A program made the position numbers and the translations under genes. A stretch of DNA of 64,000 nt from Amphiscolops sp. MND2022 (taxonomy: Eukaryota). Of the stretch, positions 1 through 64,000 are shown one piece after another. The DNA is taken from positions 7,504,001-7,568,000 of the forward strand of contig OZ076409.1 of assembly GCA_964187785.1 (NCBI GenBank), read 5' to 3'. The notes beneath the pieces were generated by a model. It saw nothing but the letters and a program-made list of their open reading frames with translations. It searched no databases and was not told the origin of the DNA. Position 1 is the stretch's first letter; every line of letters begins with the position of its first letter.

Positions 1-25
1 CAGAGCACTAGTTGAAAACTGGCAA

Positions 26-3000
26 ATGAATGATGGCACCAACCATCCAGTGTTCCCAAACCCATTGGGGACCGAGACCCATGAAGACGTTGCTCAACCC
101 ATACCACAATCACTAGTAGACGAGAAGCAATTCCAGAATGTCTTAATCACCAGGGACGGTGAACCAGACTGTGTACCATTGTCAACCAACATCAATCTCA
201 ATTGCAAAAAACGCATGTTGTACTTCCCCATGGACTTTGGGGAGTTGACCATAGACGGACTTATCGACACTGGAGCGCTGTCCAGTGCAATTCCTGAGAT
301 GGACCTCCGGAAAATTCGACTCCTATCTCCACAATCTGTTATCCGAGAAAGTCCGCCTCCAAATTTCCAAATCATGGTTGCTAATGGGCAATTGGAAACT
401 CCTAAGAGTATCATAGAGCTCAAATTTGAAGTTGGTGACATTGAGTTTCATGAGATTTTTATAGTCATGGAACACCTGACAGGTCCGATTATCGGCCTAA
501 TGTTCCTTCAACGAAACCATACAGTTCTGGACATGAGACAAGGAATACTGAATTTCCCGTTCTTCTCAATGCAGCTCAAAACAGCTGACCATAAATACTC
601 AAATGTATTAGAACCAATTCTCAGTCCCATTGAGATAACAATTCCGCCACATGATAGAGTCCTAATTAGGACCAATTCCCTACTGTACCCTGAGAATGCT
701 GTCACTGGAATTTTGCAACCGAGCGACCTTCTACATGAAGAAGGCGACATCACATTTTGCCCAGCTTTGGTCACTCTGAATGATGGCAACATATTGATAC
801 CAGTGAACAACTTCACAGACCACCCCTATAAACTCAAAAAGGGACTTCATATTGCCAATTTCTCTGTTATGACGCCAGAACAAGTGAAGTATGTCAAACC
901 GGTAGACCCGGCATCAACCTGGCATCTTTTACAAAATGACCAAGAGCAGGCAGCCCACTATGTCAGCAGTCTCATCAAAACTAATAGAAATCCACAAAAC
1001 TCCGAAAAATACTGGTTCCCGACTCCAGAAAATCCTGGAAATCCTGAGGAACATACGCCCATACAAAAACGAATCCTCCAAGAATTACAGGCTTTACAGG
1101 TCCTGGAGACACTTGACCCTACTAAAGATGACGAATCACGTGCAAAATTCCTAGAAAACTTTGACTGGAAGGATTCCACCCTTACTCCTGAAGAGAAGGA
1201 GAAAATTGAGGAAGTGTTAGTGGAATTCCATGACATCTTTGCACGACACCGATTTGATATAGGCATGAACGAGGATTTCAAGGTGAAACTGACGCCTAAG
1301 GACGATTCCCCAGCCTATAGTCAAAACCTCCCAGCTCCTATCAATTTGAAGGAGGACATCCTAGTCGAATTAGCCATGTTACACAAATATGGCATAATAA
1401 CTACACTGCCATTTTCGAAATACGCAAGTCCAATATTCGCACAAAAGAAACCGAATGGGAAACTCCGACTCTTGGTTGACTTGAGAAAAATCAACAACCT
1501 CATCTCGGATGATTACATCAACAATAATCACCCCGTCAGCACACTAGTTGATGCTGCCCAACACTTAGCAGGCAAAAAACTGTTCTGTAAATTAGACTGT
1601 TCGCAGGCATACCACTGCCTACCAATGGCCGACCAACGCTCAATCGAAATGTTAGCTTTCAATTTTGCCAGTCGCACATTCGCCTACAGACGTTTGGCAC
1701 AAGGCCTTAGGCGGTCACTATCCGCATTCTCAAGTTTCATGAGGGAATACCCCGACAAAGTCATCAAAGCGGATCAGTGTGCCCAGTATGTGGACGATAT
1801 CGGCATCGCAGCCACTGATGTTGACCACCTCATGACGAACCTGAGAGCTACATTCAAATGCATTCAGGAAGCAGGCCTTAAGTTAACAATGCACAAATGT
1901 CATTTCGGTGCAAAAGAAATCGATTTTCTCGGACGGACTATTACCCCACAAGGCGTCAAACCCCAGAAACAGAATGTGCAAAATTTTCTGGAAAAAGACC
2001 AAATTACCGAAGTCGAAAAAGGCTTTACAGCGCTACTTGGGATTCCTAAACTATTACAGGAATTATGTCCCAAGACTCTCCGAACGCCTTGCCCCATTCT
2101 ACAAGATGCTCAAAAGCGACGAAAAGGTCCTAGTATCGAAAGAATTAGTCCAACAATTCGAAGAAATCAATAGAGCACTAGACAAATGTTGCGACCTGGC
2201 CCTACAACAACCCATCCCGAACAAACAAATAGCACTAATGACGGACGCAAGTTTCGGTGCAGCTGGATACGCAGTACTAATAGAAGACGATCCGAACCAG
2301 AAATTTACTTCTCTTCGAAAATCCTATGCACCGGTGGCATATGGTTCAAAAACCTTCACCCCAGCTCAAATCAAGATGTCAATATATGCCAAGGAGTTTT
2401 TGGCAATTTACTTTGCATTCAAAGAATTTGGGCATATATTCTGGGGTGCGCCGAAACCGGTCATCATCCTTACAGACAACAAAGCTGTTACGAGATTTTT
2501 CCAAACAAAAATAATACCCCCAGCCCTGTGGAATGCGTGTGATTATGTGATTCAGTTTAATTTTGTCATAGCGCATATCCCGGGGGCACAAAATACAGCC
2601 GCAGATTATCTGTCCCGATTGGAGGCAGACCCGAAGGACAAATTGGTCATGAAAATTCGGGAAGATGTGCAAAGCTTACCAATAGAAATCAATGTCCAAT
2701 CCTCAGGAGTATCCCAAGAGGAACAAATATTCTACACAAACGATGACGATGAGACAGAGGAACAGTACTGGGCAAGAAAAGAAACAATCAGGACAAATCC
2801 AGTGATCGAAGAGCCCACTGTCACAATACAAACTCTGTCTACAAATCTGGTAAAACAACAACCAGATATCCAAGTCCGTCTAAGGAAAACGAACCAGATC
2901 ATTATCGAGCAGTCCAAAGATGCAGTATTGCAGCAGCTGAAGGCAAAGCTCCTTCATGAAGATTACTCAGAGAACATACTGCACCAGGACGTCCGATACA

Positions 3001-4778
3001 GACATTATGCAAACAATATGGAACGAATTGCCCTAAAAGACGAAATCCTGACAAGGCAATATTTTGATGAGACAGGGAATGTGAAATACCATCAGATTTT
3101 ACTCCCGCAACACTTACTCCGGGAATTGCTTCAATCCCTTCACGGGACAGCGCATAAACACCCCGGAATTTCAAAAAAGCTGCAGGAAATCAGACAGAGA
3201 TATTACTACCCTAGCATGGCTAAACACGTCAAAAAGTGGGTAGAAGGGTGTGAACAATGTGCCAGAGACAAGAGAGTCCCTAATGCAACGATCACACCTG
3301 AACTGCTCAATTTGCCCGAATGGGACCTTGGACCTGAAGACGCCATGCAGATTGACTTACTGCCGAATCTTCCCCCAAGTGGAGGATACGAAAACGTCCT
3401 TACGGCAATCGATGTATTTTCTAGATATTTGTTTGCTTACCCTCTTACGGACGCATCAGCGATCAATGTAGCAAAAGCGCTCATTGATATCATGACAAAA
3501 CATGCGTACTTGCCAACAACGCTTATCACTGATAAAGGTACCGCATTTACTTCCACAATTTTCGCGGAGGTTACGCAAATTTTGGGAATTACACTCAAAT
3601 GTGCGACGACGAAACACCCGCAAACAATTGGGAAATTGGAGCGGACCCATGCCTCATTAAAGACAAATCTCAAAATGGCATGTGGGGAATACCGCCGACA
3701 ATGGCATAAATACTTGCCATTAGCAGTACTGAATCATAATACAAGTTACCATGCCAGCATCGGCTGTGAACCAACGAGAGTATTCCATGGCCGAATTCCC
3801 TACAATATCCTGGATCATAAGCTTGGAAATAATCCAAACGAAAAGTTCAGTCCTACAACCGAATTTGCTGAAGAAATCCAGAACAGGACGAAAACCCTAA
3901 TAGACAAAACGAAGCAAAATATTATGCAGTCATATATCAAATACAAGGAATATTATGACCGCAAAGCGAAAGCTGCTCCATTGAAGGAGAATGAATTCTG
4001 TTTTCTCTTACAGCCGAAAGCGGATCATCAAGGATCGAAAATCCCATTCCGCGATTATCGTTGGGTTGGTCCATTCATAGTGCAAAAAGTCTTACCAAAT
4101 GAGAATTACATTGTACGACGGCTTAATACAAACAAAACTCAAATATTGCATCGAATTCGCCTTAAAAAATTTGTCCCCAATCAACCGCTTGAGGACAATT
4201 TCCGAGAGCAACGCTTGCAGCCAGAGGAAGAAATTGTTATTCCGCAGGATGACTTATACATCATAACGTGGGAAACCGACTTTGGCGAGCAGCTAACTAC
4301 ACGAGACAACGAAGCTATTCCGACTAGCTTACCGAATGGCGAACAGCCGAGTACGGCACAAATTAACAATGACGCAAACGAGAGTGACGCGGATTATATA
4401 ATCACGCGAGAAACGAATAAAGACAATACGGCACACAGCCGGAATGACCGCTTAAGTGACAACGTCACAACGAGAAATGAAGATAATGATGCAAATAGAA
4501 ATAAAGCATCTGATTGGCCGAATCCGGCCGCTAGCCCAAACACTCAAGAAAAATTTTTACCGAGTACAGCAAATGCACCGGAAAATCATGAAATTTTGTC
4601 AGAAAGAAATTCGCTGAATGAAAACGATGCACAAAATTCTCCAAATAGGGGGGATGATATTATCGTGCCCGAAATATCTGAAAACGATGCTAGAAATGAA
4701 AGCCTGAGCCCTAGAGGAGGAAAATATAACCTCAGGCCTAACCCCAACCCGAACTACTCAGAAGACTATAGATACTAG
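26..4778 (+). pseudogene. pol: Gypsy pol polyprotein (aspartic protease, RT, RNase H, integrase) split by a 1-bp frameshift at ~1992-1996
   Basis: ORFs 26..2173 and 1908..4778. Motifs: LIDTGA (protease), LRLLVDLRKIN and YVDD (RT), MTDAS/ILTDNK (RNase H), H..H..CEQC zinc finger, QIDLL/TDKG/LER (DDE integrase), WVGPF. Removing one A from gaaaaagacc restores NFLEKTKLPKSKK. The frame likely extends upstream of the window. Confidence 0.92.
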
Positions 4779-5008
4779 AGAAAATTAAATTCGATTCAGG
4801 AAACTAGCCCTGAATTTTATTGCCTTTTTTTCTCTTTTTATTTTTTATCTTTTAGTCCCAAGGTGAATCTTTTGAATAAATAATTGGGACAGCCAACAAA
4901 ACCCCTTCAGAAGAATAAATACGGGGCAAAGAAAAAACAGAAATGAAAATTCAAAAAAAGAAATAAACAAAGTTTACAGTTTGAGAGTACATATATACAT
5001 ATGTACAT

Positions 5009-8000
5009 TTAGTTTTTAGAACTGCTAGCTGAAGATTCGTCGGCAATAGACGAAGCCCTAGAACGCGAAATGGCCCTCTCCATTCGTCTTCGCTTGCTAT
5101 CACTGGGAAGTTTTACTGCAGAGGCATCAGGGATAGATGTGGTATCTGCTATAGTGGGGCTACGAAATTGAAACTCTGACCCAGAAAGGATAGAACGGTA
5201 AGAAGTGACAAGGGTCTTGTAAATAGCAGTCCGGCCGAAACCGTCTACAAAAGGCCAGGGGTCATAATCGGCGGCGAAAGCGGATTGCCCGAAAGAAGAA
5301 GACAGCTGCTGGAACTTCTCAAGTTGAGGCTCAGTGCAGCAGACTAGCAGGGAATCAGGATCTGAAGTCAAATAACTTTGGCAGGGTAAGATCACGTCTA
5401 CCAAACGGGACTGAAGCCCTGTTGTATCGATTCTCCCAAAGGAAACTGGGGGATATTCAGGACTGATAGTAGTTATGCAAAGACAGCTTAACTTAAACAA
5501 ATAGCAAAGATGATCATGGGACTGAAGGAATTCCAAATTCATGAAGAAATCGATGAGATCAGGGGGATCCTTGGCTGAACTAAATTCAGCGGAGTGATTG
5601 TTCCGGAGGTGGTCCAATAGGGCAACATACTCGTCTCGGCAAGCTGACTCGTTGAATTCCGAGACCCAGAAACGCAGCTGGAATGTGGAGTACAGGCAAT
5701 CAAAATGGCGCAAAGCAACATCCACTGGTCGTTTGAATAGGATGTATGGGTCGAACGCTGCCAACCCTTTGATAAGTTCGGAACTAAGTTCAGTATGTTG
5801 GAGAACCTCCGACAACAGGAACTTGATATAACTCCTGGCGCTTGCTGCGAAATCCAATTTGGCCTGGTCAGCAGTCTTAATAATCGCTGCTTTACTGGAC
5901 TTCTTGTTGAAGTGGAGTCCAGCTGCTTTCAAGTTGCTTGCTGTAGTAACTTTGCCAGCGATCTTGAGTCGCACCAGAAAGTCCTCGTCTCCCATGAATG
6001 TACCCTGGTTGAGCTGGAAATTCATCAATAAGAACCAGGCGTTCTCTAGTGGCACTGTATCCGGCTGGAAGATGCGGAAGCAAAGGCGGTTGATGTATTT
6101 GCACACTTCGCCACAGAGGAAGAAGGAGGCATCACGTCTCTGACTCAAATTGGTGACGAAGCTGGTGACATCTGAAATTCACAAATCAATGGTCCTTAAA
6201 AGGACAACAGACCAAAGGGATCTTAGTAGATTGAGAATACTCACAATCGCTGACCAAACGTTGAAAAAGCTCCAATTTGGCAGCAAAGAAGTTGTCCATG
6301 ATGAGGGACCATTCGAAGCTCTGGACCTAGGAAAGAAGCAGTGTGAACACTTTGAGACTTACCCATCAACGATAATGCAAGGAAAGCAATTACTACGATT
6401 CCTTATGTAAAGAAGATGCCACTTGAAGTTCATAACCTTATTGTGCACTCCTTGATTCTCTCGGCGAGATGAATGGTCTGTAAGATAGCGGAGGATTGTT
6501 TTCCACTTCTTCGACAAGGTTCGGCAGAGTTCAGGAATTTTCTCCACTTCTAGTCTGCAGGTCGTGATTGCCTAAACAAAGTAATCCTCAGGATTGGAAT
6601 TTCAACTGAAGTTGCTTACCACCCCCTACCAGTGTAATGTGAATCAAATGCACAAACTAGACTCACTCGGACAAGTTCAGGTGACTCTGAAACCCAGTCT
6701 TCAGATAGGCATCCTCCGAGTGAGACTAAGAGACTTTGGAGAACGGAAAACATGTTTATGTGCCCAAACACACTGTAGTTCCCCTTGTGCATCAAGGTAC
6801 GCAAGTTGAGCAGTTCGAAGCGGAAGCAACTTTGAACCCCTCGCGGATAGGCTGTGTGATGGTCCACCGTCCTGATCAGGTCGACAGCGCAACCTGAGAT
6901 CGCAACTATGTCAGGAGCAGTCGATACGACGGATAACAGTCGAGATAGGGAGCCCAGTTCCTCGGTGAGTCCAGCGCCGGTGAGGCCACTTCTGCAAATG
7001 AATAGGCGGCAGAGTTTCGCTCCTTTCCAGAACCGCAGGGACATAAAGCGATTAGCCCCTCTCTTCTCAAACTCAACTCCGAAATGCTGGGAGGCGCAGA
7101 CCTGTTCAGCTATGTCCTCCATCAGGCAATTGAAGACGTGTTGGAAGATGGCCTGAAACGGAACAAAATTGGATGAATAACATGACGTCACTTTCCTGAC
7201 CCTTCCCTACCACCTAGTTCAACTTTTCGGAAAACAACTGAGAGATCTTACCATGATGTGGTCCTCATTCCAATTGAAGTCCTGGAAAGCTGACTGAAAC
7301 TCAGTGTAACTTCCAACTCTCGCCCACAGTTTTCGAAGCAGTGCCAAATCTCCAGAACTTTGTATGAAGTCTCCCAAAAGACATACCTGTGTTCGTAACC
7401 GGGACTGTGAAGTGATGGGAGCGGAAGTGTGGCCTTGCAGATAATCCTCGTAGAATGGATTTCTTTCTCCAACGTCAACGAGCTCCGTGTGTATGAACCT
7501 GGGTAACTCATCAGCGAGTTCCTTCTTACTAAGAATTTTGCCATTCTTCCCCCTGACGCGATGCTGAACTTTCCCAGTCACAAGATCCACTGTTTTGAGG
7601 TGTTCATACCTCCACCTCTGGTCTCGGCGTAAATGTTTTTCGGTCCTGTGATGGCTCAGGATTTCAACGGTGCCCTTGGTTTTTATACTAAAATTCTTTT
7701 TACACATGTGGCACCATACCATGTGTGGATTGTGGAGGGGATCAGAGGGCCCAGAGATAAAAGATCTCGTCCACCCGATTTTGGAAAGAAACTCCTCCCT
7801 CATGGGTACGCCTCGCCTGGAAACCTTTTTCACTTTGGCTGATTTAGCAGTTGTGGTACTTTTTCGGGGCCTCTGGGTAAGCGTCCTATTCTGGATCTCA
7901 AAGAGGGTAATGTCGAGGCTACCCTTTTCACCTGTCTCAGCTCCCTCCTCAGAAGAATCTTGTAGCTGCGCTGGCTGGGGCGTTTGAGGAGAACCCATGG

Positions 8001-9279
8001 GATCTGTAATTCCGAGAGTCTGGTTGATGAGAGCCATTTCAGTAGAACCGTCACTCTCGTTGGGATCAAGGAAATCACTGACGTTCTGGAGCAGACTCAT
8101 GTCAGTTTGTGACTCATATCCTGACCCGAATTCAGTCAAAGTTCCTTCAGAACCGGATCTAGCAGGTAAATTGGGACCAGGAGTGGACGAGCGGGCCCGG
8201 ATCTGAAACTTTTCTGTCCTCGAGGGGGCTGTTGCGGGTGTTCCTCTGACAGCTCCAATTACCATCCTTTCCATGGTCGAACAAGTCATGTTGATGGCCT
8301 CATCGGTTAAAACCCGGAGCAAGTGGTAAACTTGTGGCTCAGTAAATGCGACGACTCTTTGTCCGACCGGAAAGGTGTAAGGGTCCTCGGTCTCGAAGTA
8401 CTGCTTCAAGGTGGCTCGACTTCGCCCTGACAAATCTCGCAAGGTGTCGTTTTGACCTGATTGGCCAGATCTAGATGTGCCAGGTTGGCCCGGATCGTGA
8501 ACTTCTGAGCCTGATTCACCTCCAGTTTCTGATTGCTGTGTAGAGTCAAAAGGGTTCATAGCATATAATGGGGGGCACTCAGCTTGACTGATGTTTTCTG
8601 ATGTTTGATTGGCATCACTGAACTCACAAATATCTTCAACTTGGTCTTTCCTCCCAGGAAGTGGAGGAGGTTCTATGATAGAAGAGGAGGCATCCCCTTC
8701 AGACTGTAAGAATGGGACTTCAGACATCTCTTGTGTCTGATCTTGGAGGACTTGCAACTCGGGAAACCCTGTGCTCATCTTCGGCGCCTCTGAAAGCGAG
8801 GATTCAAGTTGGGTGAGACTATCTACTGAAGTCCCTGGCTGATTTGGTGGATTAGGTGTGCCAGATCGTACAAATTCAGCACCCTGGACTGCAATTTGGA
8901 CTAATTGGCCTTGGGCCGTAATAGGACCCTCTTCAACGTTACTAGCAGAATCGGCTTCAGTAAGTCCTTGTATGGTCTCCATCCTCTGAGACTCCTGATC
9001 TGCATAGGCGGTGACATCGGCATTGCTCTCATTGTGGAAGGAAGAGTCTACAGTCATATGCTCGGTTTGTCCACGGGCAGCCCTGATTGGAGGGAAAGGA
9101 GGCGGTGAAGGATTAACTCCAGGAACATATCCAGACGTGAAAATGGGGACTGGGCGTTGAATAGCCCCGGCAGAATTGTCAGTTGTGTTGGTGGTTTGAA
9201 CTTGAGGTTCATCAGGATTCTGGTTATCTAAACAGAAAGAGATGAAATTTGGCGGTAAGCTTCCTTGAAAGAAATCCAT
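5009..9279 (-). CDS. Spliced antisense accessory gene: BED-type zinc finger plus degenerate hAT-transposase-like protein, ~1297 aa; exons 9279-7252, 7152-6667, 6571-6437, 6326-6245, 6171-5009
   Basis: Four GT-AG introns (7251-7153 GTAAGA..TTTCAG; 6666-6572 GTGAGT..TTTAG; 6436-6327 GTTATG..CCTAG; 6244-6172 GTGAGT..TTTCAG) join the 686, 191, 62 and 379 aa ORFs in frame without stops. WCHMCKK...SHHRTEKH finger at 7633-7716. The third donor is weaker and the true start may lie in a further upstream exon. Confidence 0.75.
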
Positions 9280-10347
9280 TACGCCGCATTAGAAAACTTC
9301 CGGAAGTGTTTTGAAAATTTGAATGAAACGGTTTATCACGTTAGTGGATACATTAGTGGATACAGGAAGCGTTTTGTGAACAAATTCGACCTTGATCAAG
9401 TTGAACTAGTTCAAAATAGGAGAAAATCAAACCAACCTGTATTAGAAGAGATTCTGTTGAAACGGCCCACTTGGATACAGTTCCGATTCGGACGTTGTTG
9501 AAAAGGGGGAATTAGAAGTGCTCGGGGATGAAGCAAGGGGAAAGAATCTGCGATGAAGCAGGACGTGGTCCGATGCATGCACCGAGACGAAGTTGACGAT
9601 GAAGATGAAGATGAAGATTAAATTACAAATGAAAGGATAAATGGAACAATAATTGGAATTAAATCAGGAATTGAATGAGTAAAAGAATTACTAAAAGTTG
9701 GAGTTCGTGGCTGAAGATTATTACCGGACTAATATTATGGGATTATCTACATATTTATTCTGTACATGGAGTCTGCCAGCGAAGTGTACAAAAAACTTTG
9801 TTATTTACAGCTTACTTAGTTAGTGGCCTATTCCGGCCGTTTGACCAGTTGCACTTTATCGTTTCGTTCAGTTATCTTAGTTATTCTTAGTTAAAAAATC
9901 CGCCATTTTGAAATATTTTGATTTAATATTTTCGCCATTTTATATTTTAATTTTTCAATTTATCAGAGCTTAACTCTGATTGGCTGAAGCCATGTTGGAA
10001 GTATTTAGCGACGCGTGCTGTTAATTGTTCTGAAGCAAGCCGTTAATTACCTACTAGAGGTGAAGATATTTGATATCAACAACTTAAGTGCTGCTTACAC
10101 CTACTTTGATGATGGCTTGGATGAAGGACAAACATCAAACTAATCGGAGCCGCCAACCCCGTTTAGGAATTCCATTCAGAAAAGTTTACGATGAATCGGG
10201 GCAATCAACCTAAGATTCTCCCGCTAAATTGGAAACTTCGGGAAAAGTCCTAACTCGGAATTTGGGGAGGTGATAAGCTCATTCTGATTTCAAACCCGCT
10301 CACGACAAGTTGACTAGAAAACCTTCAAAATTGCAAAAAAACCGATA

Positions 10348-11118
10348 ATGGAGAAATTCAACAAAGCGAGAAAGCTCTTTGGTTCTCTTGATTTTAGCTC
10401 GGACTCATCAAATAACTCTGTAATCTATATCAGTAGCGACAAGGAAACATCCGAAGGATGGGACTCAGATTGGTCAACGGACACAGAGGAGCTGGTGAGG
10501 AGAGTTGAAACTCAAGTCCAAGCCCGGCCAATACCCATAGCAGGAAGAAAACTAACTACGGCAAGTGATGAGCCTGGCCCCAGTACTGTGTCGCCCAACA
10601 TGCAGACCACGCCAAAGCTAGACAAGAAATACTTTGATGAGAAACTTTGCTATGCTCCAACTAGAGGCAACACAAAAAGGAGGATAGAACTGTGCAAGAC
10701 GATTCTGCCAGTTCTAGAGTCTCCACTATCTCCCCCTGCCCATGAGAGGGGGCCGTCAATGGACACGCCGCTATTACAGCCTGAAAACAGTGGATTTCAC
10801 GCCTCTTTCCATATTCAGAACGGGCTTCCTTACACGGACATCAGTACCCAGAGGTGTACGAGTTGCATGGTCTGTGGAAAGTCAGTAGACGAAATAAAGG
10901 CAATAAAAGTGACTCGCTATATGGAAGCTTCAACGCCTAGAAGCGAACCGGCGTACAAAACAGCTCTCAGAAAGGAGGCTTACATCAACGGCCTCAATGC
11001 TGGCAGTCTTCTTTTCATCGCACCCGCTGTGTCGCAGGCTGCCGCCTGTGACGGAACTAGAATTTCAACAACAGCTGTTGGCCAAGATGTGGCTCCTGGG
11101 ACCCTGCCCATTTATTAA
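10348..11118 (+). CDS. Hypothetical 256-aa protein in the 3' region of the Gypsy element
   Basis: Clean ATG-started ORF in AT-rich surroundings, Ser/acidic N-terminus and a CTSCMVC Cys cluster; no recognisable family. Confidence 0.5.
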   Translation: MEKFNKARKLFGSLDFSSDSSNNSVIYISSDKETSEGWDSDWSTDTEELVRRVETQVQARPIPIAGRKLTTASDEPGPSTVSPNMQTTPKLDKKYFDEKLCYAPTRGNTKRRIELCKTILPVLESPLSPPAHERGPSMDTPLLQPENSGFHASFHIQNGLPYTDISTQRCTSCMVCGKSVDEIKAIKVTRYMEASTPRSEPAYKTALRKEAYINGLNAGSLLFIAPAVSQAAACDGTRISTTAVGQDVAPGTLPIY

Positions 11119-12028
11119 AAGTAAACTGAAACTTTTCTTTAAACTTTTTCATTGTTTATGTATCTTGTTGCCTTGTTATTTTAAAAACTACCCGAAAGGG
11201 CCGTACTGGGACATATTCCCTATTACCGAACCAAAAATGTGCTTGTTATTTATTTACAGACAACCTTAATTTTGAATGTTAATTGTATATTAGTCCGTTA
11301 ACATAGATTGTGTTGTGCTGTTGTTTTGTAAATGCAATGAAGTATTAATCGGAGATAATAGCAATCAACTTAGAGAAAGTACGGAAACGTGTTCAAATGG
11401 TCCTCTGTACTTTCTTGCTAGCGTCACTTGCGCTCACTCTATTAGCCAATCAGATGCCTTCATTTTGTACGCTTTATTCTCTTTTGCCGATTATGGCCTT
11501 TGTATAATCTGGACGAGTGTGCTACTAATGCCGTTCAGGCAGACGGTCTAATCCGGCTATTTAGTCTACAATGAACATAGCACTTGTATTTAATGCTAAT
11601 TCCATGTAGTAATATTTATTTAGTAGTAGGCTTTGTTGATCATGAAGTACCAATTTGAAGTGCTATTTAATGCTTTGTTGTGTTATTAACAAATAATTGC
11701 CCGATTTTGCTCTAGTATAACCCTGTTGCATGAAATTTGATGTTATTGCCTTAACAGGCCTTTTGCCATTGTACTCATGAAAGGTATTTAGACTAAACAT
11801 ATTTGTTGTGCTGCCATGTGCTAAAGTATGTGCACTTACATCAACAAATACCTGTTCAATGAAAATATTTTGCCAAATATGTAAACGATGCTAGCGGTTG
11901 AATGATTGTTCCTTTGATGTATAATATTTGGAATGGATAGCGTTCATCCCGTGACCATCAGAAATGCAGTCATATGATATTGTCTTAGTCAAAGAATGTA
12001 AAGAATGAGAGTGTCACTCTTTCGGGGG

Positions 12029-12034
12029 TATAAA
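12029..12034 (+). promoter_or_regulatory. Candidate TATA box of the Gypsy LTR promoter
   Basis: ggggTATAAAga lies ~135 bp upstream of the ATG at 12167, inside the inferred 3' LTR. Confidence 0.4.
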
Positions 12035-12166
12035 GACCCGTGCCTTTGGGAGAGGAGACACTTCTTAATTTGCTCTCTTCTGGAAAGACTATCATATTAG
12101 TACAAACGGTTTCACTGTTATTTTCGAGATATAATCTAATTCAATTTTATACTCGAAGTTTTCCTT

Positions 12167-12752
12167 ATGCCTACTACAAGAAAACAAAAGAAAGCTAGAA
12201 AGTCCAGAGGACTAGAGATCCTTTCTGATATCGAAAATCTAGATATAATGTTAGGAGGCGATCGTTACAATGGAACTGAAAGAGAAAGGAGTTTAGACAG
12301 TAACTCCGTTAGAAGGAGAGAAAGTATCATGAGTAATAACTTAGACAACGAGGGCGAAAGCCTGTTTTCAAATTGTAGAAATGATGAACCTAGGACAAGT
12401 GCCGATCTTGGTCAAAACTCAGCTGAAGCAAACTCACTAGCTGAGATAAACAGGTTGTCAAGCGAATTAAACTCTAGGATATCCCGTGAGATGGATGAAA
12501 TGATGAATAATGTTGGTACACAGATCCAGAGGGCCATCAATGAGGCTATTAGCAGTCAAGTATTGCCTCAAATACAGAATGTCATAATGGCCGGATCAGG
12601 TCGAGAGACCAGAAGGGGATGGGAAGTCCCAGTTGAGAGATCGGAAGCAAATGCCGAGGAACAGCGGATTCAAAACACCAAGGCCGACTGTAGAAATGAA
12701 CAACATGATGGCTACCGATCAGGTGGACCATCTACCCGTCATGTTCATGACA
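12167..12752 (+). CDS. Probable gag/ORF1 N-terminus beginning within the 3' LTR, truncated at the element end
   Basis: Basic N-terminus MPTTRKQKKARK and a coiled-coil-like segment EINRLSSELNSRISREMDEMM. The frame runs off the element boundary into host repeat DNA. Confidence 0.5.
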
Positions 12753-13029
12753 CATACATTACCGGGCGAGACTAAAGGGTCCCCCTTTCATTTTTTTTCG
12801 GCATTGTGCAACTTTTTTCGAAGTTTTTTTCACCAAGGGGTCCCCATTGCATTTTTTTTCGAGTTTTGCGACAAAATGGATGTTGAAAAATTCCAAAGGG
12901 TCCTCCCTTTCAGTTTTTTTCGGCATTGTGAGACTTTTTTCTAATTTTTTTTATGAAAAGGTCCCCAATTCAGCAATACTTTGACATTTTGAAGTCCTTT
13001 TGCTATTTTTGAGCCTTAGATATGGCGCC
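12753..13029 (+). repeat. Partial copy of the abundant HINE-like dispersed repeat, interrupted by the Gypsy insertion
   Basis: Matches the reverse complement of part of 44616..45107 (cattaccgggcgagactaaagggtcccc; gagccttagatatggcgcc). Confidence 0.7.
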
Positions 13030-15278: not shown

Positions 15279-15680
15279 ACACAAAATTTTTGTATTTTTC
15301 AGTTTAGTACCAGTTTTGAACAAACTGCCGAATCATCACAATCTGCCATTATTTGATGACATGCTTCATTTTTGGTACCAGTCACGAGTATCACTATTCG
15401 TACTTCTTGGATTTTTCGTGTCAATCAAAACAATTTCCTTTGATATAAGATTGATTTAATTCAAGTTCTTCTGCCTTTCTAATAATGATCATGCAAAATG
15501 AATATTATACTACACAAATATTCGTATTTTTCAGTTTAGTACCAGTTTTGAACAAACTGCCAGATCATCACAATCTGCCATTATTTGGTGACATGCTTTA
15601 ATTTTGGTACCAGACATGAGTATCTCTATTCGTACTTTGGGACTTTTCGTGTCAATCAAAACAAATTCCATTGATATGTA
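15279..15680 (+). repeat. ~230-bp tandem unit (about 2 copies), repeated at ~17781..18185
   Basis: cagtttagtaccagttttgaacaaactgccagatcatcacaatctgccattatttg recurs (with variants) near 15300, 15532, 17801 and 18033. Confidence 0.85.
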
Positions 15681-16182
15681 AATTTTTTCAACTTGGTGAA
15701 AATAAAAAAAAGTGCCAATTAGATTAACTTTTGTGAAAATTTGCAATTTCTAAATTTTGTAATGTTTGTCGCAGAAATTTCAAACAAACATTTTTGTAAA
15801 CTGGATAAAATTCTGACTCATTTCCAGGTCCAGACAGCTGAACGAGAACTGCGCAGGGGAGAGAGCTAAACCGCACAAAAACGGACTTCTTCGGGCAAAA
15901 TGTGTTGATCACAAAAAGTAACGGGCCACAACCCACAGGAAGCGAAGGCGAAGGATGCGAAAGCGAATACTGATTAAAGTCCAAACATACAAAAACTACC
16001 AGTTGCTACTTAATACTCGTGGTACTACCTATATTAAACGATACCCAATTGAGTTTTGATGATAGTAGTATGTACAAGGATGATACTTTATTCAATAGTA
16101 TGTACAATTTCGAGAAAGCAAAGTTCGATTACCAAAATATAGTTTTTCTACTATGTATTTTTTCGAAGGATTCCAAGATTTT

Positions 16183-16254
16183 GCGGTCGGAGAGATTCGA
16201 ACTCGAAACCTTATAATTAGGAAGCCAACGCTCTAACCATTCGGCCATAGCGCC
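16183..16254 (-). pseudogene. tRNA-derived relic (tRNA-Arg(CCT)-like pseudogene or SINE head)
   Basis: Minus strand GGCGCTATGGCCGAATGGTTAGAGCG...TTCCTAA...GAGTTCGAATCTC has A and B boxes at tRNA spacing, but the acceptor and anticodon stems do not pair. Confidence 0.6.
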
Positions 16255-16575
16255 TCTGATTGGACGATTTGTTATTTGCTATATAACATTTCCTCTTTTA
16301 TAAATTGAGAAAATAGGTATACTAAGAGGACTCTTTTACGTCCTCACGAAAAATTTTTTGGACATATTTTAACTGTCTGACTTCCAATAGCAACGAATTT
16401 TGGCTTTAAAAAGTCTTTGTCTCACGAAAACCTTGAAAACAATTTTGCAAGGCATTTTATAAAAAAATGGCATTTATTTATGACTGTCTTGTCATCGAAA
16501 TATGGCGGATTCTTATTAACTGCCATTTTTTTATAAGCATTCAACGAATGAGCTCGTTCTTGAATGGTCCTAAAA

Positions 16576-16874
16576 CGACTGTGGAAAGTAAGACCATATC
16601 TTTATACAGGTGTCGTGGAAACCATATACATATGTTAAACTGTAAGAAAACAACTACCAAAGGGGGTAGTACGTTAATATTTAATTCTGACTGTATGGTC
16701 CTGGTTTCCACCAAAATAGCATTTACTGTTCGATGGCCACGAAAGCGACCGACTGTGGAAAGTAAGACCATATCATTATACATGTGTCGTGGAAACCATA
16801 TAAATATCTTAAACTGTAAGAAAACAACTACCAAAGGGGGTAGATAGTACGTTAATATTTAATTCTGACTGTAT
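16576..16874 (+). repeat. Direct duplication with ~174-bp period
   Basis: cgactgtggaaagtaagaccatatc...aattctgactgtat occurs at 16576 and 16750. Confidence 0.85.
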
Positions 16875-17066
16875 TATTGTACGTCAATAATGAAATTTTG
16901 ATATACCGTATTAGTGTAATGGAAAAATTGCTCAAAATTCAATGACGTTTTAGAATATTCTGACATTTATTCATATCTGGCTCACTATTGACAACTGGCA
17001 GATTTTGATGAAATGGTACATTTTCGATTGGTTAGCAATTTTAGAGGCCGGCGATTGTTCGCTCCA

Positions 17067-17560
17067 AAGATATTATGGACATATTTTGTCTCTCTAACTT
17101 CTAATAGCAACGAATTTTGGCTAAAACTGCAATTCAAAAGTGAAATTAATCATGACTAATTTTGGTCCCAATCGCGAGTAATTTTTTTACTCACGATTGG
17201 GACCAAAATATCACAGAATCTTTTTTCATTTTAGTATACTGAAAGGCCTCCTTTTTGTCCTCACGAAAGATATTAGGGACATATTTTAACTGTCTGACTT
17301 CTAATAACAACGAAATTTGGCTAAAAATGCTATTCAAAAGTGAAATTAAACATGACTAATTTTGGTCCCAATCGTGAGTAATTTTTTACTCACCATTGGG
17401 ACCAAAATATCACAGAATCTTTTTTCATTTTAGTATACTGAAAGGCCTCCTTTTTGTCCTCACGAAAGATATTAGGGACATATTTTAACTGTCTGAATTC
17501 TAATAACAACGAAATTTGGCTAAAATGCAATTCAAAAGTGAAATTAATCATGACTAATTA
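17067..17560 (+). repeat. ~200-bp tandem array (about 2.5 copies)
   Basis: aagatatta(t/g)ggacatatttt recurs at ~17067, 17267 and 17466; units contain the inverted repeat ttttggtcccaatc / (g/c)attgggaccaaaa. Confidence 0.85.
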
Positions 17561-20500
17561 ACGTTTGCAGGACTTCGATTTGGTTAACACTGTAGCACAT
17601 TGGTACTTTCAGCGGTGGTTGATTGGCTGCGTGACGAAATTCCTCAGTCATAGTTTCGTTCGTTTGTTTAGCTTCACTGCTTTGCGTTGTTTTAATGATT
17701 GTGGCAATCTCGTTAAGTGTTTGTTTATTTACATTCGCGGCGTTGCTCGCTTTTGTCATTTCTCTCTCACTTGGTTATATTACACAAATGTTCGTATTTT
17801 TCAGTTTAGTACCAGTTTTGAAAAAACTGCCAGATCATCACAATCTGCCATTATTTGATGACATGCTTCATTTTTGGTACCAGTCACGAGTATCTCTATT
17901 TGTACTTCTTGGATTTTTTGTGTCAATCAAAACAATTTCCTTTGATATAAGACTGATTTAATTCAAGTTCTTCTGCCTTTCTAATAATGATCATGCAAAA
18001 TGAATATTATATTACACAAATATTCGTATTTTCAAGTTTAGTACCGTTTTGAACAAACTGCCAGATCATCACAATCTGCCATTATTTGATGACATGCTTC
18101 ATTTTTGGTACCAGTCACGAGTATCTCTATTCGTACTTCTTGGATTTTTCGTGTCAATCAAAACAATTCCCTTGGATATAAAATTGAATTAATTTAAAAT
18201 GATTACTCAAAATCAGCGGACCAATCAGAGAGCAGCGGCAAAAGTGTCATTATAGCAGCATTATTGGCGTGGAATCCAGGACAAGCACTGTCGTGGAATC
18301 CGAGACACGCTGAACATCAAAGAGAAATTTTGTCCTGGATTCCACGAAAAGCAGCAAAAAGCTTGCCTGTGCACTGTAATGAATTGCATACCACGGTGTT
18401 TCATTGAAAAATGAAGAAAAATAAAAGACCAGCAAAGTACTGATTGAATAGTTTCGAAACATATTCATCGCAAAAATGATCAAAACATCAACAAATTTCA
18501 AGAAACTTCAGGTGATCAGAGCGAAACCCTGCCAAATTTTTGTTTTTAACTCTAAATGAACTTTTGACCAATTTTGTGATTTTGTCATTCACGGCTTGCT
18601 TTTCGAAATTCATCAGCTAGAGCCGCGAGCGTTTAACACACATCATTGTAGCATCCTCAAATTCATGTGTGGCAATCTTTCGAAACGTTTTGCACGAGAA
18701 AAAGTTGGTTTCATAACTTGTTTCTTTTCTCAACTTTTTAATCAGTTTTCTTGTTTGACGAGTGCTGTTTTCCTTTGTCATGCGAAACCTCAAGTTTGAA
18801 AATCAGGATCTTCCGTGCAAGATTTTACAAAGTCGTTTCATTGTCGTTTGCTACCCAACAAAAATAGTTTTCAACGTGTTTCTTCAGTTCCAGGTTTTGA
18901 GTTTTGCCCGCTAATCGTGAATAGAAACGATACAACTTCATCAGGTAGCAAGATCTCTATCATGCATAAAGAGCCAGCCATTCAGGTAACTTTCGCAGTT
19001 AGATAGTTGCTTTTCTTTTGAAAAAAAAAAACAAATCGGATAACATAATAGATCGCTGAGCACAGGGTAGCATTTCGTAGATGAACAATTTTAGGTTGTT
19101 TCCATTTAAATTCAAGGCTAAAATGCTATAGAATCATCAATGTACTATCATTGTGTACACACAAACTGTCATCGCTATTCGGAATTTTTTACAGTTTCTG
19201 TCAGCTATATCTTCGACAATTCACCCCTGAAGTCAAACAGAATTGTTAAGTTTTTTGTCGGAGTCAAATATTAGAAATTTTTATCTTAATATTGTTCTCT
19301 GATAAAGAGAAGATTATCTGCAGTTTCTCACCAACTTTCATGTTTCTCCCTTGAACTATAGAATCGCCCCCTTGAACACTGGGCCATCATTCCCGTTGCT
19401 TTGTACGGTCTCTTTTTTATCCATCCAAGTAGAAATGAAGAAGAGAATAAGAAAAAACTTTTGTTTCCCGCAATGTGAACCTACAAAATTCAACTTTCGG
19501 GTACTGTCGAAGAGAATACTTGACTTTTTGAGGTCCTTTTGCTATTTTCAAGCTTTAGATATGGCACCGACTTATGCCGTTCCCGGCTTGTTCCATAACT
19601 TCCTGACTATATCCATAAAAATAGCGTTTATAAATATACCTTTTATAAAAAATATAGCATATCCGAAAATACGTAGACTTACTTCTATTCTGCATATTTT
19701 TGGTTATTCATTCTATGATTTTTATTACCTTACTGGTCCCAACGAATTTGTTGATTTTGGGTCAAATGTTTCTTGAAATAACATGTTAGGTACAATGTCT
19801 GAACTTATACTTTTATGTAGATTATCGACTAAAAGCTACGTGTTCGAACATTTTTGTTCGAACAAAACTTCCACCATTTGGAGTCCACTTTCACAATAGC
19901 AGCACTTTTTGATATGCCTCATGTGCGTTTGAATGTCCACGTATACAGTTTCAAACTTCAACCCCACTTTTTTTGTCTTCAATATTGACATACCGTACTT
20001 ACCGTAGCTCCCTTGGGATTTTTAGTCGGCGCTTTTCTAGTGAAAAGTGCCCAACTATTACGGTGACTAGTTTTTTGTCAGAACACAGACCTCGCCCTGT
20101 ATGTACCACATAGGTACTTAGTACTTCATTTTGAACGCATCCAAAGTCTCTAAAAAACCCTTTTCAATTTTTCGGTGCTATGAGACTTTCTATGCTATCT
20201 CCGCCCCCTTTTTTGGCTTTGTCAGACTATTTTTCGAAAACTGTTCAATATTCCCAAAGGGTCCCCCCTTCAATTTTTTTTGAGATTTTGCAACTGAATG
20301 AATGTTGAAAAGCCCAAAGGCCCCCATTCACCATTTTTTGGCACTGAGACTTTTCAAAATTCTCACTTCTCGTTTTTTTTGTGAAAACTTTTTAATGTCT
20401 CCAAAGGGTCCCCCTTCAATTTTTCTGATATTTTGCAGCAAAATGAATTTTCAAAAAGCCCAAAGGGTGCCCCTTATACAATTTAAAAAACTTTGCGCTT

Positions 20501-27246: not shown

Positions 27247-28566
27247 CTAAAAAACATTGGGAAGGGGGATTAAAACTTGCCCGAAGTTTTCTACCCAGCG
27301 ACTGCGTTCGAGGTACTCGTAAGCGGCCTCGTCTCTGGCAATTGCTTGTCTGTTCATCATGTATTCGTCTTGCGGTCTGTGCATGTCTGTAGCCACCAGT
27401 TCATGCTCTGGGTCTACCGCCCCACCGGCCGCTGCCACTGTAGCACCTGGACCCGCCGGCACGACTGAGCCTCCTCCGACGGGACCCCCGGCCGCTGCCA
27501 TTCCAGCAGCCGCGGCGGCCGCGACCTGTGACATAGTCGGTTGTGCTGCAGGACCTCCCGTGGCTGGCACTGCAGCAACTGCACCTTGAGGAGCACCATA
27601 GATTCCTGCGCCTGCAGGGTAGCCACCACCGGGGTATGCAGCGGCGGCGGCTGCGTAGGGATTATGTTGCTGGGCCGCTGCCCAGGCCGTGGTAGGGTTG
27701 CTGTAGTACATGTTGTAGGACCCGTTGGCAGCAGCGGCGGCGGCAACGGCTGCTGTGTTGTACCAAGTGGGGTCGTAAGAGTACGCGGCGGCTGCAGCCA
27801 GAGCTGCATTGTAGTCTGCAGAAGCACCATTTGTGTAGTCTTGTTGGGCTGCCTGGGCGGCCGCCGCTGCCATCATTGCACCTGCAGGACCACCGCCGGA
27901 CCCTGTAGGGATGCCCCCGGGGCCACCAGCACCATTACCTGGATAAGGAGTTTGATGAGCATTGTAACCCTTGTTACGTTCATTAGTCTTGTTCACCTTG
28001 ATGGCGATGCCATCGCCGCACGAAAGGTACTCTGTGCCATCCAACTGCAACGCCTTCTCGATTTCTGACTCGTCAACGAAGTTCACGAACCCGAAGCGCT
28101 TCGTACCGTGTTGATCCAAGTACGTGTGGGCAGAGACAATGGTTTCAGGGCATTTGGTGGAGAACAGATCGAATAAGGCCTTGTTGCTGATGTTAGCAGC
28201 TAAGTTGCCCACGTACACAGAGAACTGGGTTCGGGTATTTCTGCCTGGCTGGTACCCGCCGATTCCGTTTGTGCCCACGTTGCCGAACGGGTTTCTGTTC
28301 TGGTTGCCAGCCTTGTGCGCAGCGTAGTTGAGTTTGAATCTGGTCATGCCAGGAACGTTGTTGATGCTTTTGCCATTGAGGTTGACCAGCACCTTTTCTG
28401 CGTGATCTGCCGATGGAAACGTGACAAAGCAGTAGCCGTTGCCGGTCGTCATCAGATTCCTGCCCATTTTCACTCCAACCGGCGTCTCGTAATGACCCGC
28501 AAACGCAGCCATGATGGAGTCTTCAGTCGCCATTGGAGGCACATCACCCATCCAAAGAGTAGCCAT
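27247..28566 (-). CDS. TRNAU1AP: tRNA selenocysteine 1-associated protein 1 (SECp43)-like, two RRMs, 439 aa
   Basis: N-terminus MATLWMGD...GYCFVTF...LNGK...RFKLNYA matches SECp43 RRM1. RRM2 has SVYVGNL/RFGFVNF, followed by a Tyr/Ala-rich linker and a C-terminal NRQAIARDEAAYEYLERSRW motif. A splice acceptor TTTTTTTTCAG lies just upstream of the ATG at 28566. Confidence 0.85.
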   Translation of the reverse strand: MATLWMGDVPPMATEDSIMAAFAGHYETPVGVKMGRNLMTTGNGYCFVTFPSADHAEKVLVNLNGKSINNVPGMTRFKLNYAAHKAGNQNRNPFGNVGTNGIGGYQPGRNTRTQFSVYVGNLAANISNKALFDLFSTKCPETIVSAHTYLDQHGTKRFGFVNFVDESEIEKALQLDGTEYLSCGDGIAIKVNKTNERNKGYNAHQTPYPGNGAGGPGGIPTGSGGGPAGAMMAAAAAQAAQQDYTNGASADYNAALAAAAAYSYDPTWYNTAAVAAAAAANGSYNMYYSNPTTAWAAAQQHNPYAAAAAAYPGGGYPAGAGIYGAPQGAVAAVPATGGPAAQPTMSQVAAAAAAGMAAAGGPVGGGSVVPAGPGATVAAAGGAVDPEHELVATDMHRPQDEYMMNRQAIARDEAAYEYLERSRWVENFGQVLIPLPNVF

Positions 28567-28625
28567 TCGATCACTTCTGAAAAAAAAACGATACAATTCA
28601 AGTTGCAACGTCATTGTATTATTAT

Positions 28626-28998
28626 TAGAGGTGCAACCGGATCGATATCTACCGGAACCGGATTTATTCCGGATTTTCGTCTGCCGGATACCTGATTTTT
28701 TTCCTCGAAAATATTATGGCATTTTTTCCTTTGCATGTTTTTCTATATTTTAGAAATCGAGAGTTAGACTTGTGATGAACTTTCTGAAAAACTCGTGTTA
28801 TTGCACGATAATCTCAATTTTTTGACTGATTGTGCATTCGAAAGATGACATTTTTTTGTTTTGGATTAAAGTCTTTTCGTTCTATTATTCTGTTTTCAAA
28901 ACAAGTCTAGAATCCGGTAAAAAAACCCGGTGAAAAATTCCGGAACCGGATTCGGTTCCTGAATTTACCGGATAACACCGGATTCCGGCGCATCTCTA
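28626..28998. mobile_element. hAT-type MITE upstream of the TRNAU1AP CDS
   Basis: Ends TAGAGGTGC / GCATCTCTA with clustered ccgga/tccgg subterminal motifs; 8-bp flanks attattat / attatcat. Confidence 0.65.
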
Positions 28999-33528: not shown

Positions 33529-34559
33529 TGTTGGCGCCTGAGATTTGAGATTATGAAGACCTGGAGCAAAAATATCGGAAAAACTCGATGTTAATTAATT
33601 GGTAGCGATCTGGTGAAGGTTTTAGACCCTTTGATTTTTCCCTTACGTACCAGATTTTCGGAGACTCCACTTAATGTCTGATAAGTTTCTTCATTTTTCA
33701 TCCTTTTCTTCATTTTAGTGCATCAAACTTAACTACATCTTATTCAATTATTTGGTTCATTGGTGCTTCAAGGTTACATGATATTGGTTGAAGCGACTCA
33801 TTCGACCTTTTGTTCTATATTTGAAATTGAAGGAATTTTAAGTTGTTGGTACTTTAGTGAATACATATTTGTTAATATATGGCGTGATTTAGCATTTCCT
33901 GTGCTTTTGTTTCTTTAAACTATCGTTCACGCCACATCTACGTGAATCATGTATTCTGGCCTCCATTGTGATTCCTTGCATGCCACACATTTATTTGTGA
34001 TATTTTCTTAATTAATTTAAATGGATATTCTGATGACTACTGAGTTTGATATTTAACGATATTTCGACTATTTTATATAATTAATACACAAATAATCGTT
34101 CAGTTTGGGTTATTCCATACCCACCTACATATTTGTGGCTCTTTCGGCCGCTACCAATCCACTTTTCATTCACGCTTTGTCATTCTAATTTTATGGTTCA
34201 ATAGTTTGTTTGCTATGTAAACAATGCATTCTATCAGAACATCAGTTGAATTTGGAATAACGCCAGTGAGCGGTTGATCGTTAACTCGAGATTAAATTGT
34301 TCAGTTCTTCATAATCGAGCGCTAAAGACAGATTTCAGTCAAGTTGGGATTGGAATCACCAAGATTGTCTATTTCGAAGAAGATTTGGATAATAGAAATT
34401 CTCAAAGTTGAGAAATAGCTAGCTAGTGGAGTTATTTCGCCTCAGTGAAAGATACAGTCCTTTCAAAATCGAGAATCCTGCTTCATTTGTGGAAAGCAGG
34501 ACGAACCAAGGACCGGCATAAGCTTGAATCGTTTGTTGGGATTTGAGTCAGCCGTTACA
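33529..34559 (+). repeat. 5' LTR of the BEL/Pao element
   Basis: Direct repeat of 41211..42240. Confidence 0.95.
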
Positions 34560-34561
34560 TT

Positions 34562-34578
34562 TGGTCCGCCGACCCGGA
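34562..34578 (+). promoter_or_regulatory. Primer-binding site (tRNA-Tyr-like)
   Basis: TGGTCCGCCGACCCGGA directly after the LTR resembles the TGGTCCTTCGAGCCGGA complement of the tRNA-Tyr 3' end. Confidence 0.65.
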
Positions 34579-34620
34579 CCCTGTCTGTTTGGAAGCTGAA
34601 GACGAGGTACAACTGATATT

Positions 34621-34790
34621 GTGGTAGTTTGGACGTTTGCGTCTGCCACATATCACTATCATCTCGTGGTAGTTTGGACGTTTGCATCTGCCACACATCT
34701 TCATCATCGTAGTATTTTGGACGTTTGCGTCTGCCACACATCTTCATCATCGTAGTATTTTGGACGTTTGCGTCTACCACATATCTTCAA
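34621..34790 (+). repeat. Four ~43-45-bp tandem repeats in the BEL leader
   Basis: gt(g/a)gta(g/t)tttggacgtttgc(g/a)tct(g/a)ccaca repeated four times. Confidence 0.9.
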
Positions 34791-34827
34791 CACTCATTGG
34801 ACTTCGTGTTACGAGGGAGTCAGTGTG

Positions 34828-40800: not shown

Positions 40801-41223
40801 GCACTGACGCCGAATCACTTTCTGTTGGGACGACCTGTGGTGGCAGAACCGCTGATGCCAGATTCTGTCAGATACGTGGACTGTCGAAAAATGTACAAGG
40901 TGGCTGAAGCGTACAATCAAATGATCTGGAACAGATGGGCGAAAGAATATCTTCCCAAGTGGAACGTGCGAACGAAATGGGCAAATGATGACGAACGTGT
41001 CCTCAAAGTTGGAGATCTGGTTTGGTTGATTGACGAGTCAGTTAAACGACATGAAAACAAGATGGCGCGTGTGATCGAAGTGTTTCCGGGAGCTGATGGT
41101 GTCATACGATCAGCACTAATCAAGACAAGCGATGGAGCCCTTCAAAGACCCGCTGTGAAGTTGGCGCCAGTTTTCTATGAGTGTTTTCGAGATGAAAACA
41201 GGGCCGGCGATGTTGGCGCCTGA
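34828..41223 (+). CDS. BEL/Pao gag-pol polyprotein; two frameshifts in the N-terminal extension (~35170, ~35730), 1822-aa core intact
   Basis: KLPKMVLEKYSGDPLEWPEW (Gag), three Cys/His knuckles, ICDTGS (protease), NFYMDD (RT), IFSDAS (RNase H), GVDYFGP/SDNG/GIWERL (integrase). The stop lies inside the 3' LTR. Confidence 0.9.
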
Positions 41224-63868: not shown

Positions 63869-64000
63869 TGGGCAAAGGAACTGAATTCTGAACTGGTGTC
63901 CATATCAAAGTTTCTATGTATTTGATTTACATACTCGGCAGAAAGCTTCGAAGCTTCACCTTCAGTTTGCATAAGAACAGAGTTCAATACAAAAGTGGTA

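Follow-up and report, generated by a model that had tools for sequence, protein, structure and literature searches.

An intron-containing gene, probably of hAT transposase descent, antisense to gag-pol in a young Ty3/Gypsy retrotransposon of Amphiscolops sp.

The DNA analyzed here (the window) is a stretch of 64,000 nucleotides from the animal Amphiscolops sp. MND2022 (GenBank assembly GCA_964187785.1, contig OZ076409.1, positions 7,504,001 to 7,568,000 of the forward strand). At its beginning lies the 3' half of a young, full-length Ty3/Gypsy long terminal repeat (LTR) retrotransposon, a member of a high-copy family in this animal genome, and this half contains, on the minus strand at 5009-9279, a five-exon gene that converges on pol. 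Carried along within the element during retrotransposition, the gene keeps its introns and is maintained in working order by selection. An earlier reading made from the sequence alone (hereafter, the sequence-only reading) had proposed an antisense gene of this kind and traced it to a hAT DNA transposase.

The window starts inside pol, and 10 kb of upstream sequence was added to it (locus L021); negative coordinates denote positions upstream of the window. A direct repeat of 1,729 bp, 99.25% identical, represents the 5' LTR at -3273 to -1545 and the 3' LTR at 11030-12752 (plus strand), with the ends TGTCG...ATGACA, that is, TG...CA. The copy is flanked by the 5-bp target duplication CATAC, the right-hand one at 12753-12757, and the LTR pair together with these duplications delimits an element unit of 16,026 bp. 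For comparison, we retrieved 20 kb around each of 10 sibling copies from three subfamilies (A1-A4, B1-B3 and C1-C3), which, with the window copy, gives a set of 11. LTR pairs are recognizable in nine of the 10 siblings and are 98.2-99.9% identical; perfect, site-specific 5-bp target duplications were found in all eight copies that could be scored (window, A1, A3, A4, B1, B2, B3 and C1), the duplications of A2, C2 and C3 not being scorable. The family is recently active and abundant.

The gag frame (-2157 to -421, or L021 7843-9579; plus strand) encodes 579 amino acids (aa) with Pfam matches to DUF1759 and zf-CCHC. This frame opens inside the LTR, which encodes its first ~195 codons, and runs through the LTR end, so that the 3' LTR carries a truncated copy of the gag start (12140-12775). 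The sequence directly after the 5' LTR, where the primer-binding site is expected, begins TGGTGACAGG and lies inside the open gag frame; no obvious polypurine tract was seen in the 30 nt before the 3' LTR (11000-11029), which are not purine-rich. The pol region (2-4778, plus strand) follows gag in the -1 frame and shows the protease-RT-RNase H-integrase order (gag-asp_proteas, RVT_1, RT_RNaseH, Integrase_H2C2 and rve in Pfam). In many siblings, pol occupies a single frame of about 1,735 aa. In the window copy, it is split over two overlapping frames, 2-2173 and 1887-4778, with the frame change located within 1887-2173; the antisense gene is fully open in this copy despite the split.

The spliced antisense coding sequence starts with an ATG at 9279 on the minus strand and comprises 3,894 nt, encoding 1297 aa followed by a single terminal stop (5011-5009). 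Exon 1 (7252-9279, 676 codons) encodes a low-confidence N-terminal region, a basic stretch and then a conserved finger block; exon 2 (6667-7152, 162 codons) contains the conserved EFE, CRS and SGC motifs; exons 3 (6437-6571, 135 nt, 45 codons) and 4 (6245-6326, 82 nt, 27 codons) are short; and exon 5 (5009-6171) is entered in phase 1, with its coding frame at 6169-5012 plus the stop. The four introns, all GT-AG, are located at 7153-7251 (99 nt), 6572-6666 (95 nt), 6327-6436 (110 nt) and 6172-6244 (73 nt), in phases 0, 0, 0 and 1. These lengths and phases, as well as the stop-free frame of ~1297 aa, are exactly those given by the sequence-only reading, which, however, had counted four joined open reading frames (ORFs) where there are five exons. 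Also as described there, about 230 bp separate the converging stops: between the pol stop (4776-4778) and that of the antisense gene lies a spacer of 230 bp (4779-5008). Two minus-strand AATAAA hexamers in this spacer (4842-4837 and 4821-4816) are candidate poly(A) signals of the antisense gene.

Across the 10 siblings, the GT and AG dinucleotides are retained at 38 of 40 positions, and the four introns vary in length (97-100, 86-104, 110-113 and 73-74 nt) through indels of which the sizes are not divisible by three. Subfamily C, the most distant one, has introns that are 44-74% and exons that are 64-91% identical to those of the window copy; in the 87% subfamily, however, intron divergence from the window copy is no greater than exon divergence. 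The spliced model is free of stops in the window copy, B2, B3 and C2, the proteins of which differ by up to about 29%. Further support for the intron positions comes from exon-sized ORFs in public assemblies, aligned to the spliced model, because relatives that lack an intron join the exons exactly as predicted. Thus, P0162, without intron 3, aligns straight through the exon 3/4 junction with no insertion, and so do P0125 and P0197, without intron 4, at the exon 4/5 junction. Insertions are also found at the junctions: 24-25 aa, in frame, at the exon 1/2 junction in P0099, P0306 and P0334, 38 aa exactly at the exon 2/3 junction in P0351, and 22 aa, in frame, at the exon 4/5 junction in P0162. 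In the exon-2 alignment of the relatives, similarity starts just after the translated acceptor and stops at the translated donor. The five-exon model holds and, as judged at the sequence level, the pattern is far beyond chance. The possibility that the antisense frames are chance ORFs was rejected, given that the splice sites, the open frames and the junctions in relatives all fit the model.

The protein is conserved along with the splice sites. In pairwise comparisons of the window copy, B2 and C2, the ratio of nonsynonymous to synonymous substitution rates (dN/dS) is 0.07-0.13 for the whole gene. Regional values are 0.15-0.22 for aa 1-500 and 0.07 for aa 501-676; those of the finger block, exon 2, exons 3-4 and the structured portion of exon 5 range from 0.04 to 0.09. 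In the most divergent pairs, synonymous sites are saturated or close to it. The antisense gene is under strong purifying selection.

All 10 siblings are colinear with the window copy over the whole unit, including the antisense gene, at 77-98% nucleotide identity. The sequence-only reading had named siblings with the gene in the same place, conserved splice sites and dN/dS below 1 as the way to check its proposal; this is what we found, with dN/dS ranging from 0.04 to 0.22, and its assignment of the gene to the Gypsy element is borne out by the common position and by the 5-bp duplications around the 16-kb unit. Of 7,695 candidates for exon 5 in the 1.07-Gb genome, at least 107 gave scored matches; most of these are open, and they fall into three identity bands of 93-98%, 87-88% and 77-81%. 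Among the matches listed, 44 of the 87 integrase matches have an exon-5 match arranged tail-to-tail on the opposite strand at 205-244 bp, and only one other geometry of such pairs occurs within 20 kb; both lists are samples, so that the unpaired integrase matches say little.

The arrangement could also be explained by a passenger, that is, a hAT transposon nested in an ancestral element and copied along without serving it, and an antisense nested insertion is indeed the simplest entry route for a gene with introns. However, the dN/dS values, which hold across three subfamilies near synonymous saturation, the presence of the gene in all siblings fetched, the conservation of a non-coding block upstream of it (see below) and the lack of convincing terminal inverted repeats (TIRs) or an 8-bp duplication flanking the gene all speak against a passenger, which we regard as highly improbable. 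The search for TIRs covered 6.5 kb and yielded no credible pair flanking the gene among 89 inverted pairs. The best candidate, 18 nt long and 94% complementary (4815-4832 / 10891-10908), was read as a chance match on account of its A/T-rich composition, the position of its right arm within coding sequence of a sense ORF, and the fact that 89 such pairs occur. No tandem repeats were detected in 4600-13000. Accordingly, a nested DNA transposon was rejected, and with it the case that the sequence-only reading had itself put forward as contradicting its proposal, namely, a gene missing from sibling copies and bounded by TIRs and an 8-bp duplication of its own.

In several copies (for example, those at the genome positions C10:48.09 Mb, C13:41.50 Mb, C4:13.81 Mb and C3:90.54 Mb), the integrase and exon 5 belong to different identity bands relative to the window, with a 96% integrase next to an 87% exon 5 or a 90% integrase next to a 97% exon 5. 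Such discordance suggests that subfamilies have recombined, with an apparent break between pol and the antisense gene.

The encoded protein begins with a fast-evolving, low-confidence N-terminus, followed by a basic stretch with a BED-like zinc finger; after these come two folded domains, a small one of the beta-beta-beta-alpha type and a large one that is all-alpha. The finger, already recognized in the sequence-only reading as WCHMC...HHRTEKH and located at aa 523-549 (nt 7713-7633), follows the pattern CxxC-x17-HH-x4-H and sits in an almost invariant block; its Cys and His residues are kept in 18 of the 19 sequences that cover it, the remaining one having Gly at the first Cys. In the predicted model of a 60%-identical relative, exon 2 forms a helix, three strands and a helix, making it a candidate for the N-terminal half of an RNase H-like fold. 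The exon 5 model consists of an all-alpha domain, with residues 10-230 at pLDDT above 85, and a disordered basic, Ser-rich tail ending in SSSKN. At E<=1e-3, public data contain 438 cluster representatives related to the exon-5 domain, with identities as low as about 26% and a range of 26-52% for the diverged relatives, and all of these are unnamed exon-sized ORFs. A search of 5,532 candidates of 677-2000 aa for longer annotated forms of the protein gave no scoring match, although this is weak evidence, and no relatives were found in metagenome contigs with the smaller of our alignments (alignment A4).

Several observations connect this protein to the hAT/ZBED superfamily. Among 48,161 representative structures, one and the same chain, the Hermes transposase (8edg), gives the longest structural alignment for two non-overlapping domains, and both matches are colinear with the order of the chain. 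The nearest ESM neighbors of exon 5 (score 0.93) include 22 clusters out of 30 in which Dimer_Tnp_hAT is found in 53-60% of the members, along with FAM200/GTF2IRD2-like clusters, whereas those of the N-terminal half, represented by residues 480-844 of P0099 (score about 0.8), are associated with DUF659, DUF4371, FAM200-ZBED5, ZBED1 RNase-like and zf-BED. In its domain order, the protein appears to match Hermes and the hAT, ZBED, FAM200 and GTF2IRD2 proteins, in which a CxxC..H..H finger at the N-terminal side is followed by a beta-rich core and then by a large all-alpha domain. On the basis of this order and the structural matches, weak as they are, we conclude that the protein probably descends from a hAT/ZBED-type transposase.

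Several results weigh against our interpretation. Both Hermes structural scores are below the reliability level of the tool, and a Foldseek search of the exon-5 model against the PDB produced no match at E<=0.001. Pfam finds no family on any exon and no hAT family in scans of 32 and 42 relatives (alignments A1 and A2, not to be confused with the sibling copies so labeled); the sole trace of BED, in a scan at E<=10, is zf-BED at E=4.1 in one of the 42 relatives, 13 of which match Zn_ribbon_19 (best E 0.014). Sequence profiles built from alignments A1 and A3 retrieve no transposase from the PDB, the only rows being Taq DNA polymerase I at E 0.7-1.8, and hhalign comparison of the same two alignments with one hAT transposase of this genome (697 aa, PF05699 at E 4e-17) gives probabilities of 0.4% and 2.9%. 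No invariant Asp is present at the positions that the sequence-only reading had considered catalytic, the invariant residues there being those of EFE, CRS and SGC. Finally, the spliced frame is fully open in only four of the 11 copies, the other seven containing stops or frameshifts.

The hAT echoes that the sequence-only reading had noticed are, thus, joined by colinear Hermes alignments and by ESM neighbors, while every sequence method is negative; the structural comparison that it had recommended likewise turned out empty for exon 5 against the PDB and weakly positive for Hermes. Its suggestion that the catalytic residues are eroded agrees with the lack of invariant Asp and with an invariant Ser at one of the positions; an intact DDE triad is not evident, a negative that is not firm because it comes without residue-level superposition. 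We also considered that the gene is integral and selected but unrelated to hAT, being a captured or de novo zinc-finger protein with a new fold or a different known one, in which case the resemblance to Hermes and the ESM neighborhoods would be noise produced by a large helical domain. This explanation has to face the fact that a single chain tops two non-overlapping domains by alignment length, in colinear order, that, in ESM space, each half of the protein has the corresponding half of hAT/ZBED families as neighbors, and that the order of the finger, the beta-rich core and the large alpha domain is the hAT transposase order; it appears unlikely, although by no means negligible. We put the probability of the entire interpretation, that is, an integral antisense five-exon gene of probable hAT descent that provides an accessory factor to a young Gypsy element, at about 0.6.

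If the protein is a hAT relative, it might, in principle, have retained transposase activity and so provide the element with an additional route of movement at the DNA level. Two Glu residues of exon 2 (E29 and E65) and two Asp residues of exon 5 (D140 and D204) show no or almost no variation. The insertions, however, carry 5-bp duplications and TG..CA ends in all eight scorable cases rather than the 8-bp duplications of hAT elements, no TIRs were found, and the position aligned to the second catalytic Asp is the invariant Ser, so that there is hardly any room for continuing transposase activity.

The region between the ATG and the 3' LTR bears on the expression of the gene. The sequence-only reading had placed the start of the gene next to the 3' LTR and had cited antisense genes driven from the 3' LTR as precedents. 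In fact, the ATG is separated from the LTR start (11030) by 1,750 bp that hold a conserved block and a sense ORF, and transcription from the LTR has no support. The non-coding block (9700-10000, 420-720 bp upstream of the ATG on the minus strand) is 73-93% identical between subfamilies, compared with 45-70% in its flanks, and is more conserved than even the N-terminal coding region. Read on the plus strand, it contains ATTGGCT at 9979-9985, corresponding to a minus-strand CCAAT box, and GCCAT(T/G)TT at 9901, 9934 and 9989; these motifs, which we take to resemble NF-Y/YY1-like sites, are invariant or nearly so in six aligned copies. Given the distance of 1.75 kb from the ATG to the LTR and the conserved block in between, the block is a better promoter candidate than the LTR, and its sequence would fit an internal, possibly bidirectional promoter of the antisense gene.

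The sense ORF (10318-11118, plus strand; first Met at 10348 and 257 aa from there) extends with its last 89 nt into the 3' LTR, and diverges from the antisense gene with the conserved block between them. At the same place, an ORF of 266-285 aa is open in eight of the 10 siblings (A1-A4, B1-B3 and C2) and shorter in C1 and C3; among the five siblings that were aligned, B2 and C2 are 56-58% identical to the window at the amino acid level. The ORF has no match to any Pfam family. Its product is acidic and Ser-rich and contains a CxxCxxC motif.

The spliceosome reads splice sites on one strand only, and introns that are antisense to the genomic RNA of a retroelement therefore persist. In the case of the gene described here, the introns read CT..AC in the genomic RNA, remain unspliced and survive reverse transcription by virtue of being antisense to this RNA, whereas the antisense transcript would be spliced normally. 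The start of this transcript most likely lies some 600-700 bp upstream of the ATG, at the CCAAT/GCCAT block, and not in the LTR. The protein presumably no longer cuts DNA; it would most likely reside in the nucleus and, by means of its finger and basic stretch, bind specific DNA sequences as an accessory factor of the element. Its most likely role would be to regulate the transcription or the chromatin state of the element itself, with an integration tether as the alternative. We would give this regulatory role somewhat less than even odds. Still more tentatively, one can envisage an old, widespread lineage of animal Ty3/Gypsy elements that keeps a hAT transposase as a catalytically silent DNA-binding accessory, with an internal promoter shared with a fourth, sense ORF and introns that are kept only as antisense; the protein would steer the landing of the element or shield it from silencing, and the module would be exchanged by recombination.

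Conversely, the product might work against the element, as a self-limiting repressor or a means of copy-number control. Antisense transcription across the 3' internal region could feed silencing, as discussed in a review on plant antisense ORFs (aORFs) (PMC7264820). Self-limitation sits poorly with an abundant and recently active family, and selection acts on the protein sequence here, not on transcription alone; it is, in our opinion, an improbable explanation, though a good deal less so than a mere passenger.

The closest known counterpart of this gene are the antisense ORFs of plant Retand and Grande elements. In Tat-lineage Gypsy elements (Retand, Grande gene 23 and RIRE2), aORF-3R is located, in antisense orientation, between pol and the 3' LTR; according to two sources, plant aORFs are present in most or all copies, are predicted to encode a DNA-binding or nuclear protein, and mostly carry the TRP28 domain (PF04195), the Grande gene is said to use its own promoter, and the word "intron" occurs in neither paper (PMC7264820, PMC11963269). 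The gene described here is similar to those of Retand, Grande and RIRE2 in its place, antisense orientation, location in an unusually long 3' internal region and presence in most copies, but differs in having four spliceosomal introns and a hAT/ZBED-like protein in an animal, as opposed to TRP28 proteins in flowering plants. No match to TRP28 was found by Pfam on the exons or in the relatives.

Among viruses, HBZ of human T-cell leukemia virus type 1 (HTLV-1) and APH-2 of HTLV-2 depend on the 3' LTR for their transcription; a spliced form of HBZ exists, and HBZ is about six-fold smaller than the protein considered here. Common to all three is the coding of a protein opposite gag-pol, and HBZ and APH-2 are accessory nuclear regulators, the role that we propose here. 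In contrast to HBZ, the gene of the Gypsy element has an ATG that is 1.75 kb away from the LTR and separated from it by the conserved block, and possesses four introns but no basic leucine zipper (bZIP), no family of which was detected in the Pfam scan of the exons. The nuclear localization of HBZ and its role in the life cycle of the virus are stated in PMC11963269. In animals, LTR elements of bdelloid rotifers, such as Vesta and Juno, have captured third ORFs of foreign origin; the parallel consists in extra ORFs in animal LTR elements, but, in that paper, antisense refers to small RNAs, and introns, hAT and transposases are unmentioned (PMC5408684). Compared with the hAT/ZBED proteins, with which it appears to share the domain order, the antisense protein shows no significant Pfam match to hAT or BED and no recognizable DDE triad, and the gene has neither TIRs nor 8-bp duplications; unlike a free hAT transposon or a single-copy ZBED host gene, it rides in a retrotransposon, with at least 107 scored copies. 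In a literature search that covered few subscription journals or Repbase reports, no antisense gene that is hAT-like or contains introns was found in an LTR retrotransposon.

Most of the antisense accessory ORFs described in LTR retrotransposons are those of plants, and the present case adds an animal example with unusually clean evidence. This antisense accessory gene, which is multi-exonic and probably transposase-derived, is real and well supported. At least 107 copies of it were scored, public data hold 438 diverged relatives, and the elements have LTR pairs that are 98-99.9% identical. The gene is a natural example of the principle behind antisense-intron reporter cassettes, in that a retroelement can keep spliceosomal introns indefinitely if these are reversed. 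If the hAT descent is true, a retrotransposon would have domesticated a DNA transposase, reversing the usual story in which the host is the domesticator, and the protein would become a candidate for control by an LTR element of its own targeting or silencing. On the practical side, gene finders will report the antisense gene thousands of times, as "genes" of the host or as fragments of ORFs.

The remainder of the window contains further retroelements and several unrelated features. A BEL/Pao LTR element, a group that, to our knowledge, is known only from animals, occupies 33690-41670, with 300-bp LTRs that are 97% identical and a 1,838-aa ORF (35707-41223) encompassing Peptidase_A17, RVT_1, rve and DUF5641. 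Another Gypsy pol, with a 1,876-aa ORF, is located on the minus strand at 58274-63904 (region 53724-63904) and is followed on the same strand by ORFs of 485 aa (55902-57359) and 725 aa (53724-55901) that have no Pfam match and may represent additional accessory genes. Two RRM_1 domains occur in a 488-aa ORF (27247-28713, minus strand), and weak matches to C2H2-type fingers in a 314-aa ORF (50462-51406, minus strand); both ORFs are likely host genes or exons. Finally, a 265-nt direct-repeat family is found within 15284-18281, in the form of the pairs 15284/15516 and 17786/18017, which are 2.5 kb apart.

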